Below the pieces are notes generated by a model that saw nothing but the letters and a program-made list of their open reading frames with translations, searched no databases and was not told the origin of the DNA. Shown in pieces: positions 38,300 through 41,228 of a stretch of DNA of 60,812 nucleotides (its first letter is position 1; every line of letters begins with the position of its first letter). The translations under genes and the position numbers were made by a program. This DNA is from Candidatus Thorarchaeota archaeon (GTDB lineage: Archaea; Asgardarchaeota; Thorarchaeia; Thorarchaeales; Thorarchaeaceae), in contig JAEOUM010000177.1 of assembly GCA_016839275.1 (NCBI GenBank), positions 1 to 60,812 of the forward strand, given 5' to 3'.

Positions 38300-39196
38300 A
38301 TGCTCTATACTGTTATGAAGCTACGAATTAGCTCACTCCGAATTAAATTGGAAGGAGGAAGTACAATTGATAAGAGAAAGATAGTATTCCAAATGATAAT
38401 GACTTCCAAAATTGTACCGATATCAGACGAGAACATTGACGAAGTGCTCCAGCTTCTCACTGAAGACGCATTATCTAATATTGTACTGATTGCAGACTGT
38501 ACTCAACTGAAAGAGTGGTGTGATATCCGCATTCTCAAAAACAATAACGAAATCGATGCCATTTTTTCAGTATATAGAGACCTCGATTTTCTAGCCACAG
38601 CATTCTGGTGCCGAGATGTGATATCATTAAGAGTTGTCATGAAAGATTTCGGCAACATTCTTGTCGGAAAAGAGTTCGTAGCGATTTGCACGCAAGACCA
38701 GCTTGCGCAATTTGCAAAAGCCTGTGTAATTCTGAAACCAATCAAGGAACGTCAGATGATTGTTGATAGATCAATCAAGCTACATTGCGATTGTCGAAAG
38801 ATTCCAGTCAGGCTCTCAATTCATGACTCTAGAAAGCTGAAAGAACTTTACAACGTCACAGGAACACCAGCATGGACACCTAATGCAATGAACCTAGGAC
38901 CTTTCTACGGAATTATTGAAGAAGATAGAACCATTGCTGCAGCTGCAGGTGTCCATTTCATGACACCCTATGGGACTGAGATTGGTAATGTGGCCACACA
39001 TCCAGACCATGTAAGGAAAGGGTACGCTGCCGCATGTATCAAGGCAGTAGTTGAAGAAGTCCTTAAGGATTCGGACCTTGTCATACTACATTACTTCGAA
39101 AGTAATGTACCAGCGCAACAACTCTATGAAAAAATGGGATTCATATATTCGAAGGCAGATCCAGTCTTCTTCGTGAGAGCTACATGCACAGGTTGA
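38300..39196 (+). CDS. GNAT acetyltransferase with C-terminal FR47-like domain; true start probably further downstream
   Basis: AAAAGVH, IGNVATHPDHVRKGYA and NVPAQQLYEKMGF. Confidence 0.85.
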   Translation: MLYTVMKLRISSLRIKLEGGSTIDKRKIVFQMIMTSKIVPISDENIDEVLQLLTEDALSNIVLIADCTQLKEWCDIRILKNNNEIDAIFSVYRDLDFLATAFWCRDVISLRVVMKDFGNILVGKEFVAICTQDQLAQFAKACVILKPIKERQMIVDRSIKLHCDCRKIPVRLSIHDSRKLKELYNVTGTPAWTPNAMNLGPFYGIIEEDRTIAAAAGVHFMTPYGTEIGNVATHPDHVRKGYAAACIKAVVEEVLKDSDLVILHYFESNVPAQQLYEKMGFIYSKADPVFFVRATCTG

Positions 39197-39325: not shown

Positions 39326-40168
39326 CTAATCTCGGCTATCAATCATATATTTTGTATTCAATCCAAGATTGTAGATTCGTTTCAAGGATTTCTCAGCATC
39401 ATAATACCAGAAGGTTTTGGTAAGAATCCATTTGAATTTGAGATTTCGATATCGTCGTAATGCAGCAAGAGATTGTTTTCTAAGGGCATCTGTTGGGGTC
39501 GAGGGGTCCTTACTTAACTCACGAAGTTGATGAAGTTTGGTTTCGATTGACAAAAGATCCCTATTTAGAGTCCTCTCAATTGCTTCTTTAATCTGAACCG
39601 AATCTGAAGATTCGGCTAATCGAAGTCGCGACCACCGCATAGAACGGGCACCTATGGATTTAAGCTGGTTATTGAATTCCTTGGAGTCTAATAATGAACG
39701 CTCTTTTTCATAATCGAGGATCTTTCTACGCTCTCTAGCACGTAATACCGGAAACAGGAGGATACCGGGCCTAATTCGAATGCCCATAGACCGTCTTAGA
39801 AGACGTTCAACACGCTTTTTTTGACCAGGAGTTGGATTATTAAAACTGTAGGAAACTATCGAATATGTTCTGAAGGCATGTGGGTCATCAAGTCGGGTTT
39901 TTATTCCGGGAATCTCACGCGTCCGAATGAAGGATAGTATAGGCAATGAGTGAAGAAGGTCAGTGTAAGCACCAACATTTGAGCCTGCAATAAAGAGCCC
40001 TTTTCCAACACGCACAAAATCGTCGTATTGACTTAGTTTCTTTGAAACTCCTCTGATGCCTTCTTTAGATCCAAGAAGTACAACTAGTCGTGATGTGCCC
40101 TTTAGATCAATCTGAGCAGGATTGATACTCTCAGTATTCACCTCGTTCACGATCATTAAACCATCCAT
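39326..40168 (-). CDS. Hypothetical protein with a ChrB-N/PaaX/Cas2-like ferredoxin-fold pattern plus coiled coil
   Basis: YSIVSYSFNNPTPGQKKRVERLLRRSMGIRIRPGILLFP resembles the ChrB N-terminal pattern; C-terminus is helical. Fold call is inference. Confidence 0.55.
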   Translation of the reverse strand: MDGLMIVNEVNTESINPAQIDLKGTSRLVVLLGSKEGIRGVSKKLSQYDDFVRVGKGLFIAGSNVGAYTDLLHSLPILSFIRTREIPGIKTRLDDPHAFRTYSIVSYSFNNPTPGQKKRVERLLRRSMGIRIRPGILLFPVLRARERRKILDYEKERSLLDSKEFNNQLKSIGARSMRWSRLRLAESSDSVQIKEAIERTLNRDLLSIETKLHQLRELSKDPSTPTDALRKQSLAALRRYRNLKFKWILTKTFWYYDAEKSLKRIYNLGLNTKYMIDSRD

Positions 40169-40424
40169 AATTAGAGTTTGATTGTTGACTTGATATACTC
40201 ACATGAAAACCAGAGTGACACACATGTGCGATAGCTATAACCGTTAAAATCTTTATTGTGGCAATCAAATCATCTTAGTCTTCATAAAAGAAGTTGATAG
40301 ACCTTTTATTAAAATCTAATATTCATATATACTTCAATTAGCCAAATAAAGTACTATAAACTTGATAATACACATTAGACATATTTTACATTTGATTTGC
40401 CTACGCTTGCCGAGAGGTGAAAAA

Positions 40425-40508
40425 ATGGTCTTCGATGATGAAGATACTTGGGACGACGATGACGAGGATTGGGAAGATGATGATGACTGGGACGACGACG
40501 ATTTCTAG
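40425..40508 (+). CDS. Acidic microprotein, 27 aa: MVFDDEDTWDDDDEDWEDDDDWDDDDF
   Basis: GAGAGGTGA 4 nt before the ATG; mixed GAT/GAC codons; triple stop TAG TAA TAG. Confidence 0.7.
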   Translation: MVFDDEDTWDDDDEDWEDDDDWDDDDF

Positions 40509-40605
40509 TAATAGTCGGATTCGAATCTCACAAAACTGCCATCTGTCTGTTTTAATCACCTGAATAACAATCAAATCGTATACAATATCACATAGGTGTG
40601 AACTG

Positions 40606-40701
40606 ATGGGTAGTAAAAAACCAACAACAAAGAAGCCACCTGCAAAGAAAGCAGGTGCAAAGAAAGAAGCGAAAGCTGCTGAAAAACCAAAGAAAAAGTA
40701 A
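40606..40701 (+). CDS. Basic Lys/Ala/Pro-rich microprotein, 31 aa: MGSKKPTTKKPPAKKAGAKKEAKAAEKPKKK
   Basis: AGGTG upstream; 13 Lys with mixed AAA/AAG codons; H1-tail-like PAKK/AKK repeats. Confidence 0.7.
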   Translation: MGSKKPTTKKPPAKKAGAKKEAKAAEKPKKK

Positions 40702-40708
40702 TATCAAT

Positions 40709-40781
40709 ATGACTGAGGTGAGTTTCTCCACGATTACATGAACACTCTGTGTGGATGGACTCACCTGTCATCTTTCTTTTA
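40709..40781 (+). terminator. Long imperfect hairpin plus pyrimidine tract closing the microprotein pair
   Basis: Pairings ATGAC/GTCAT, AGGTGAGT/ACTCACCT and TCCAC/GTGGA, followed by CTTTCTTTT. Confidence 0.6.
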
Positions 40782-40892
40782 CTGAATTTAGTATTCTAAT
40801 TCCCTTTTTTGTGGCATCCAATTGGTAATGTACTATGAGTTTGCATAATGCTAAAATGGAAGCTACCCAGCTTACCAGCAATCGTGATTTTA

Positions 40893-41228
40893 ATGACGAC
40901 AAAACAATATCCAGACTATATCAAAAGTCTTGCAAAGGCGGTTATTCCATTTCCAGGAGTACAAGGTTGGGTTGCACAGGGAAAGAAGTTCCAGTTGGTT
41001 TTCTTTGAAATAGAAGCTGGAGGCGAAGTTTCCCCACATAGTCACGGTGAGCAGTATGGATACGTGTTTGAAGGAGAAATGATTCTCACCATAGGAGAAG
41101 AAACACAGACCTATAGAGCAGGAGATTCCTATCATATTCCAAATGGAGTGATTCACCACGCGAAGTTCAGTACTTTCGTCCGAGTGATGGATTTCTTCCT
41201 AGAGGCAGACAGGTATAAGACAGAGTAG
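40893..41228 (+). CDS. Cupin domain protein
   Basis: PHSHGEQYG.V.EG and GDSYHIPNGVIHHA. Confidence 0.9.
   Translation: MTTKQYPDYIKSLAKAVIPFPGVQGWVAQGKKFQLVFFEIEAGGEVSPHSHGEQYGYVFEGEMILTIGEETQTYRAGDSYHIPNGVIHHAKFSTFVRVMDFFLEADRYKTE

Follow-up and report, generated by a model that had tools for sequence, protein, structure and literature searches.

We analyzed a 60,812-nt stretch of DNA (the window; contig JAEOUM010000177.1 of assembly GCA_016839275.1) for two very small open reading frames (ORFs), ORF1 and ORF2, and for the gene of a basic protein that lies beside them. The pair sits in a 679-nt gap between this gene, which encodes a 280-amino-acid (aa), very basic orphan protein here called p280 (39326-40168, minus strand), and a cupin gene (40848-41228). 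ORF1 (40425-40508, plus strand) is divergent from p280 and encodes an acidic 27-aa peptide, while ORF2 (40606-40701, plus strand) encodes a 31-aa peptide rich in Lys, Ala and Pro. Sequence comparison across related genomes indicates that p280, ORF1 and ORF2 make up a three-gene module that Thorarchaeota share by inheritance with at least three other families of the phylum. The DNA of the window is archaeal and includes a fragment of large-subunit rRNA at 1-793 on the minus strand, and the source names of homologs (Candidatus Thorarchaeota) identify its genome as Asgard, an origin that an earlier note made from the sequence alone had called probable. Below, G000 is this genome, a 2.58-Mb assembly; g and f stand for genus and family, and L for a fetched locus. 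The genus of G000 is g1 and its family f1, and f12, f31 and f32 are three other families of the same phylum.

ORF1 runs from an ATG at 40425 to a TTC codon at 40505, reads MVFDDEDTWDDDDEDWEDDDDWDDDDF, and is closed by TAG TAA TAG (40506-40514), the last two of which are further in-frame stops. It contains 19 Asp or Glu residues, with Trp at residues 9, 16 and 22, and its Asp codons are mixed (GAT 9, GAC 7). ORF2, which reads MGSKKPTTKKPPAKKAGAKKEAKAAEKPKKK, contains 13 Lys, again with mixed codons (AAA 7, AAG 6), and has no hydrophobic or amphipathic segment. The two peptides carry extreme and opposite net charges, -19 over 27 aa for ORF1 and +11 over 31 aa for ORF2, and this acidic/basic polarity is the same in all orthologs. 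Each ORF has its own Shine-Dalgarno (SD) site: the GAGGTG of a GAGGTGA element (40414-40420, plus strand) lies 5 nt ahead of the ORF1 ATG, and an SD-like AGGTG (40594-40598, plus strand) lies 7 nt ahead of the ORF2 ATG, as GGAG- or GGTG-like sites precede the ORF2 orthologs. The spacer between the two ORFs measures 97 nt. A promoter-like motif, TTAGACATATTTTACAT, is located at 40375-40391 on the plus strand, and the two-gene unit is closed by a plus-strand hairpin at 40709-40771 (minimum free energy -26.6 kcal/mol, z -3.44; 2 of 200 shuffles fold equally well), followed by a pyrimidine/T tract of terminator-like appearance, CTTTCTTTT (40772-40780, plus strand). The earlier note had described most of this, namely separate ribosome-binding sites, the 97-nt gap, the closing hairpin and pyrimidine tract, the length, 19 acidic residues, regular Trp and triple stop of ORF1, and the 31 aa and 13 Lys of ORF2, and these observations were reproduced here. 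Its remark that the mixed synonymous codons speak against simple microsatellites also stands, and both ORFs are conserved. The start that it gave for the feature, 40407, does correspond to an in-frame TTG, but the conserved start beside the SD site is the ATG at 40425.

Across the whole assembly, 3 of 87,333 start-stop combinations of 18-60 aa were composed of at least 60% Asp/Glu; the ORF1 frame accounts for two of these, and the remaining one belongs to the C-terminus of a 141-aa protein. The ORF1 frame is the sole micro-ORF of the assembly that combines at least 60% Asp/Glu with an SD site. Eleven micro-peptide sequences, ORF1 and ORF2 included, were looked up in a collection of ~15 billion proteins, and none was present.

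A single-sequence search with ORF2 matched only 2 of 41 genomes; as this was too insensitive, p280 was used as the anchor and orthologs were sought by p280 synteny and by DNA patterns. In genus g1, p280 was found in 22 of 28 genomes. An ORF1 ortholog occupies the same divergent position at 20 of these 22 loci, the other two being contig-end fragments, and a Lys-rich ORF follows the ORF1 ortholog 64-98 nt downstream in 16 of the 20. A DNA pattern of the ORF1 N-terminus (M-x-F-D-D-D/E-D-x-W) produced 30 matches in 26 of the 87 genomes of the class and 0 with the reversed-pattern control, and the matches include a second genus, g25, which carries both ORFs. Among 27 ORF1 orthologs, variable columns by codon position numbered 7/7/21 of 24 each, while the 22 ORF2 orthologs gave 14/14/18 of 20. 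The ratio of nonsynonymous to synonymous change (pN/pS) was 0.14 for ORF1 and 0.37 for ORF2 (0.26 within the MAKKKP type), figures that come from pooled pairs in a low-complexity alignment and, for ORF1, from a pS of 0.91, near saturation.

The signals around the ORFs are conserved as well. Each of 27 loci has a GGTG-containing SD site 5-7 nt ahead of the ORF1 start; many ORF1 orthologs in other genera start with GTG or TTG behind GAGGTGA. Start codon, SD and stop are kept across genera, and length changes consist of whole codons. When the 27 upstream regions were lined up, the promoter-like motif appeared ~35-50 nt upstream of the ORF1 start, in most relatives as TAGACATCTTTTACTC; it is a putative promoter. 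A hairpin follows ORF2 in all 21 ORF2-bearing loci that were folded, with a T-rich tract next to it in g1. In the four closest relatives the outer stem of the hairpin is kept, and the block TCAYCTTTCTTTT is conserved and invariant apart from its Y position. We infer from this arrangement that ORF1 and ORF2 form one short transcription unit, with probable termination at the T tract. A scan for sigma-70 promoters and terminators is not meaningful for archaea, and three metatranscriptome contig sets returned seven partial low-complexity pieces, all with less than 90% likeness and derived from other sequences.

The dominance of third-position variation, together with the conserved start, SD and stop and the pattern matches, argues that ORF1 and ORF2 are real protein-coding genes, and we hold with high confidence that they are real, conserved genes belonging to a module. 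The earlier note had named, as signs by which the pair could be judged, homologs of both ORFs in other Asgard genomes, their co-occurrence and synteny, and purifying selection. All are seen, with the ORF1 type at 66 of 68 p280 loci, a Lys-rich ORF at 38 of 68, and the pN/pS values given above. The opposite reading, in which a chance pair of ORFs has arisen in purine-rich low-complexity DNA or the stretch is an RNA element, can appeal to the low-complexity composition and to ORF sizes below the limits of gene callers. It is difficult to reconcile with variation that is concentrated at third positions, with start, SD and stop conserved across four families, and with 30 N-terminal pattern matches against 0 for the reversed controls, and no Rfam family reached threshold in this stretch. 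We consider a non-coding origin extremely improbable.

To describe the spread of the module, p280 was followed through the phylum. Within the class, 60 of 87 genomes carry it, representing 13 of 17 genera; outside f1 it was found, with weaker scores (E 1e-15 to 1e-5), in 14 of 19 genomes of f12, 1 of 3 of f31 and 1 of 5 of f32, for an overall 76 of 400 genomes of the phylum. We inspected 68 p280 loci, one per genome. An acidic-Trp micro-ORF adjoins p280 in 66 of them, across four families, and both misses involve truncation: the locus of G064 is cut by a contig end, and in G062 the ORF was cut off at the edge of the fetched stretch. The orientation of the acidic micro-ORF differs between families, being divergent from p280 in f1 and f31 but on the same strand, 300-450 nt downstream, in f12 and f32. 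Nothing in these data speaks more strongly for a functional link between the genes than the fact that they stay together despite rearrangement between families. In two g22 genomes, a DDDDW-stop on the strand opposite to p280 lies just past its 3' end (G062:C203:2888-2905, 36 nt beyond that end, and G058:C43:2475-2492), and these sites would be a third, convergent arrangement. One 2.3-kb contig of another g22 genome (G060:C62, locus L029) is nearly identical to the g1 locus of G017; it is probably mis-binned, because G060 has its own diverged p280 locus on contig C1.

The Lys-rich ORF is recognizable in relatives by an N-terminus of the form M-A/S/G-K/S-K-K-P/S (MAKKKP..., MAKKKS...) and is 19-33 aa long. 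Of the 68 p280 loci, 38 have it on the same strand at a distance of no more than 450 nt, again in four families. By lineage, it was seen in 16 of 21 loci of g1, in 10 of 13 of g25 (two of the three misses are cut loci), in the single loci of g16 and g19, the latter with a TTG start, and in none of 20 loci of nine other f1 genera. Outside f1 it is present in 8 of 10 loci of f12, where it stands between p280 and the acidic ORF, and in the one locus each of f31 and f32. No Lys-rich ORF accompanies the acidic micro-ORF at 13 loci away from p280 (0/13). Given its presence in g1, g25, g16, g19, f12, f31 and f32 and its absence from all 20 loci of the nine f1 genera, the pair is old and ORF2 has been lost repeatedly. 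At the f32 locus (L092, genome G398), two acidic-Trp ORFs lie downstream of p280 and each opens with a Lys run (MVSKDKKKKEEDDEW...; ...GPKKKKVKYWDD...), with basic and acidic segments joined in one peptide.

Adjacent, co-oriented, tiny genes of opposite charge, with the acidic gene upstream in f1, could be read as a toxin-antidote pair in which a harmful Lys-rich polycation, active on membranes or nucleic acids, is neutralised by the polyanion. The frequent loss of the basic gene while the acidic one stays would fit this, as with orphan antitoxins. The module is, however, single-copy and syntenic and looks vertically inherited across the family and beyond rather than patchy or mobile, and neither p280 nor ORF1 nor ORF2 matches a PADLOC or PHROGs family at E<=0.01. 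The gene order is moreover reversed in f12, and ORF2 lacks a segment of the hydrophobic or amphipathic kind. We regard a toxin-antidote system as very unlikely.

The downstream genes bear on a further alternative, that the micro-ORFs are regulatory leader peptides (upstream ORFs) whose runs of Asp, Trp and Lys codons control the gene behind them. The ORFs are short, are dominated by a few codons and, in this window, lie upstream of a hairpin, the cupin gene and a major facilitator superfamily (MFS) gene. In the examined loci of eight genera (g17, g18, g21, g22, g23, g26, g27 and g28), however, a hairpin comes after the micro-ORF, and the next gene, for an MTAP-like phosphorylase (PNP_UDP_1), is convergent, which largely refutes this explanation. 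Downstream genes also vary between lineages, f12 neighbours including NhaA, UPF0182, CitMHS and a PolX-like HhH protein, and the peptide sequence itself is under purifying selection, leaving control by a leader peptide highly improbable. We also observed a conserved block, TAGAA(C/T)A.(T/A)CCGCCTTTCATGGCGGTCTGACA, which lies 100-130 nt after the acidic ORF, past the terminator hairpin and short of the 3' end of the MTAP-like gene, in L061, L063, L065, L067, L071, L072 and L074-L077.

The most constant neighbor of ORF1, p280, was taken from the ORF list and characterized by sequence searches, an AlphaFold2 (AF2) model and Foldseek. It has a net charge of +22 and an isoelectric point (pI) of 10.2, with pI values of 10.2-11.1 across 25 orthologs. 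It belongs to no Pfam, NCBIfam, PADLOC or PHROG family, NCBIfam searches with 24 orthologs returned nothing consistent, and its homologs are named in their sources only as "hypothetical protein". It is restricted to this lineage: matches at E<=1e-3 among 1.84 billion representatives fall into only 51 clusters of ~235-295 aa, apart from a few shorter and apparently partial entries, and include no fusion. An atlas search with a homolog recovered only Thorarchaeota clusters and one Bathyarchaeota lead at 0.89. The AF2 model (pLDDT 84, pTM 0.80) consists of two Cas2/ferredoxin-like alpha/beta domains and a C-terminal three-helix bundle. Its best Foldseek match is PaaX (8a39; E 2.3e-3, probability 0.93, TM-score only 0.25), and Cas2 chains align to one of the domains with TMt 0.42-0.52. 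A distant member of the family, P0097, matches PF20803 (PaaX_M, the Cas2-like domain in the middle of PaaX) with E 5.5e-8 and 33.2 bits against a cut-off of 24; another, P0099, scores 22.6 bits, below the cut-off. Matches of the p280 profile to the PDB sequences of GrpE (E 0.071) and ATG16L1 (E 0.92) were taken as chance.

The likeness to PaaX lies in the predicted succession of a Cas2-like alpha/beta domain and a bundle of helices. The differences are that p280 is strongly basic, itself matches no Pfam model, and lacks the winged-helix DNA-binding domain, in whose place the second alpha/beta domain seems to stand. In the model, residues 27-82 run beta-alpha-beta-beta-alpha-beta rather than as a winged helix, and no helix-turn-helix Pfam family was found in p280. 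The modelled fold and the family matches suggest that the core of this basic protein is PaaX_M-like but comes without a winged helix, and p280 probably binds nucleic acid or a ligand.

The acidic, Trp-ended C-terminus of ORF1 is not confined to this locus. A DNA pattern for DDDDW followed by a stop was found at 69 sites in 47 of the 87 genomes of the class, with 0 matches for the reversed controls; outside f1 it occurs in 5 of 314 genomes, and the controls gave 3 matches in all 400 genomes. Twenty such sites away from p280 were inspected. Two are the C-terminus of TBP, and eight are the C-terminus of a Cys-rich protein of ~100-140 aa with an acidic tail and no Pfam family. Three represent a second micro-ORF type (L/MHFDDEDLWEEEDWDDDEWEDDDDW) that lies ~50 nt upstream of a homolog of the GNAT/FR47 gene at 38300-39196 of the window, six are further acidic micro-ORFs, and one is doubtful. 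The GNAT-linked type is co-oriented with its neighbor and was seen at L100, L103 and L107 (G007, G024 and G015, respectively) and also at L038, L039, L057 and L058; G000 has no copy of it.

In G000 itself, three TBP paralogs (PF00352; E 1e-61, 2e-53 and 7e-62) end in ...EDDDW or ...DEDENW. Their genes are located at G000:C16:1054-2195 and G000:C49:29078-29686, two of them in tandem, with ends of ...EDWGQVDEEEDDDW and similar, and TBP in other species of the genus ends in ...IEVDDDDW. Of the 26 ORFs of at least 80 aa in G000 that have an acidic C-terminus, four end in Trp. A Zn-ribbon-like Cys-rich protein at G000:C122:3678-4010 carries a long acidic tail of the form FD(F/I)DDD(E)DW and has orthologs at L105, L106, L108 and L112-L116. 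ORF1 is thus one of a small family that comprises both acidic-Trp peptides and acidic-Trp tails. Other Lys-rich tails in G000 revealed no pattern that would link them with TBP or TFB. Larger G000 proteins with Lys/Ala/Pro-rich linkers or tails are encoded at C106:2202-2963, C106:3421-4314 and C40:3864-5552, and we take these to be putative ribosomal proteins L18 and L32e and a Topo VI A-like protein; such long stretches on larger proteins indicate that H1-like, low-complexity basic sequence is common in this genome.

These tails raise the possibility that ORF1 is a free copy of a docking motif of the TBP type, an acidic run ending in Trp, and that its position beside p280 and ORF2 is secondary. 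ORF1 would then compete with the tails for a common receptor, or occupy a DNA-binding surface, with a role in transcription initiation. All three G000 TBP paralogs end in this way, as do 4 of the 26 acidic C-termini of the genome. The DDDDW-stop pattern occurs in 47 of the 85 f1 genomes against 5 of 314 in the other families, the inspected sites divide into two TBP, eight Zn-ribbon-like proteins, nine micro-ORFs and one doubtful case, and micro-ORFs persist where p280 is missing. On the other side, a receptor is neither known nor predicted, and the resemblance covers a short, low-complexity sequence. This reading also leaves unexplained the p280 linkage (66 of 68 loci) and why ORF2 is confined to loci with p280. 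We consider this alternative, the main rival of the reading preferred below, unlikely, if deserving of some weight.

The reading that we prefer places the partners of ORF1 at its own locus. Expressed as one unit from the promoter-like motif, through SD-ORF1 and SD-ORF2, to the hairpin with its T tract, the two peptides would be made together. ORF1 is probably too short and too highly charged to fold and would act as a disordered polyanion whose Trp and Phe anchors dock on basic surfaces. Its likely partners at the locus are p280 (net +22) and the co-transcribed Lys-rich ORF2 (net +11). By covering or neutralising the basic surface of p280, ORF1 may serve as a cofactor or nucleic-acid mimic, and ORF2, where present, may compete for ORF1 and so tune the system. 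The analysis itself shows that both ORFs are coding and conserved, that the genes are linked, that their charges complement each other and that they are restricted to certain lineages. From linkage and charge we infer that ORF1 is disordered, that it binds partners and in which direction regulation runs, and the model as a whole, in which the ORF1 polyanion docks on p280 or ORF2 and masks or tunes p280, is put forward tentatively, at somewhat less than an even chance. Bolder, and in our judgment quite improbable, is a minimal polyelectrolyte switch of two unannotated micro-proteins in Thorarchaeota and some related Asgard archaea, in which a Trp-anchored polyanion that mimics nucleic acid or the TBP tail, together with a polylysine counter-peptide, would control a basic PaaX_M-like protein and perhaps the basal transcription machinery.

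Several observations weigh against docking on p280. Five of the six further micro-ORFs occur in genomes without detectable p280 (three of the five g15 genomes, G057 and G075), genomes whose completeness is 74-98%, and in G057 and G075 a carbon-nitrogen hydrolase gene occupies the p280 position. A second acidic-Trp paralog lies upstream of the GNAT gene instead of beside p280. Micro-ORFs without p280 and a GNAT-linked paralog mean that p280 cannot be the sole partner. ORF2 is absent from 30 of the 68 p280 loci, including 20 of 20 in the nine f1 genera, and is thus not essential to ORF1. The near-saturated, pooled selection estimates also call for caution, the genomes are related and their counts are not independent, and opposite charge alone would make any such peptides stick to each other in vitro.

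Genes this small are invisible to standard annotation, and two micro-genes conserved with an orphan protein across several Asgard families provide a concrete, testable micro-protein case in the archaeal lineage closest to eukaryotes. A search of one literature collection turned up no paper that deals with these peptides, with an Asgard DSS1 or with acidic tails of archaeal TBP. Brought out here are the occurrence of the module in three further families, where the gene order differs, the antiquity of ORF2 and its repeated loss, the link of p280 to PaaX_M, the exclusion of the leader model, the GNAT-side paralog and the Trp-ended TBP tails. The first reading had overlooked that p280 is the most constant partner, that ORF2 is dispensable, and that Trp-ended acidic tails recur on TBP and other proteins. 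Charge-driven disordered cofactors are known from DSS1, CSNAP and prothymosin-alpha; if ORF1 binds p280, the Lys peptide or a receptor of the TBP tail, such cofactors would not be a eukaryotic invention. Trp-ended acidic C-termini on all three TBP paralogs suggest that transcription in Thorarchaeota uses a docking motif not yet described. Chemical synthesis of peptides this short is possible, so assays of binding, DNA competition and acetylation are feasible.

Two further genes were noted during this work. A GNAT/FR47-like acetyltransferase gene, identified by Pfam, lies at 38300-39196 on the plus strand, convergent with p280; in other genomes of the genus its homolog has a second acidic-Trp micro-ORF immediately ahead of it, and its tie to the module is an observation of neighborhood only. 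The listed ORF begins ~30 codons upstream of the start seen in homologs (window 38300-38395; MVVEIEPLSDEN... in relatives), and the true start is probably near 38393. At L096:3605-3750 (plus strand), a small Arg/Lys-rich ORF, MRKKWKKKRARKIRRKRRKKQK, was seen, which we take to be a putative ribosomal protein eL41.

The composition of the two peptides recalls several eukaryotic proteins, and the earlier note had drawn on Sem1/DSS1, the WASP acidic motif and histone H1. Kinship with these proteins was not supported: no Pfam or PDB-sequence match at E<=10 spoke for it. A Pfam scan at that threshold with ORF1 and two orthologs (32 and 40 aa) returned no DSS1 family and only an unrelated GP67 row (E 3), and a profile of 24 ORF1 sequences gave 0 matches among 177,635 distinct PDB sequences at E<=10, although the composition correction of HMMER may hide weak low-complexity likeness. 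DSS1/Sem1 chains are present in the PDB. ORF2 matched no Pfam family, and its profile no PDB sequence, at E<=10. The view that the peptides are true homologs of eukaryotic factors, with ORF1 a forerunner of Sem1/DSS1 or of a WASP-type motif and ORF2 of a linker-histone tail, draws on compositional likeness and the Asgard host only. Besides the missing profile matches, neither peptide has a globular or helical part, only a few Asgard families carry them rather than the phylum at large, lengths are 20-40 aa against roughly 70-200 aa, and the literature search gave no paper joining Asgard archaea and DSS1. We give common descent with these factors almost no credence.

As analogies, these systems are more instructive. 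Sem1/DSS1 and CSNAP are small, acidic, disordered subunits of PCI complexes, BRCA2 and RPA (PMC6218214, PMC8442969). ORF1 resembles Sem1/DSS1 in being tiny and acidic with conserved Trp, and it would likewise dock on basic grooves, maybe of several partners; unlike Sem1/DSS1, it is a third to half the length, lacks the C-terminal helix and is confined to a few Asgard families. With the VCA region of the WASP family, ORF1 shares composition only, acidic residues with Trp. Its 27 codons stand by themselves between an SD site and three stops, which leaves no room for the WH2 (V) or central (C) segments. The likeness of ORF2 to linker histone H1 also lies in composition only, namely Lys/Ala/Pro repeats, and at 31 aa ORF2 has no winged-helix globular domain. 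The acidic tails of the three G000 TBP paralogs share with ORF1 an Asp/Glu run that ends in a C-terminal Trp, but these tails are appended to a folded DNA-binding protein while ORF1 is the tail alone.

Prothymosin-alpha and the tail of linker histone H1 form a disordered polyelectrolyte pair of very high affinity, and prothymosin-alpha is considered to chaperone H1 or to displace it from nucleic acid. ORF1 and ORF2 have the same extreme opposite net charge and a composition that would preclude folding, and they may plausibly pair as polyelectrolytes, or ORF1 may be a mimic of DNA or a chaperone. They differ in being micro-proteins of 20-40 aa encoded side by side, in the regularly spaced Trp and Phe of ORF1, and in having a folded basic protein, p280, as their most constant neighbor, and there is no sequence relationship between the two systems. 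Taken as an analogy, the proposed switch would be an archaeal, compact counterpart of the acidic disordered cofactors of eukaryotes, DSS1 and prothymosin-alpha among them.

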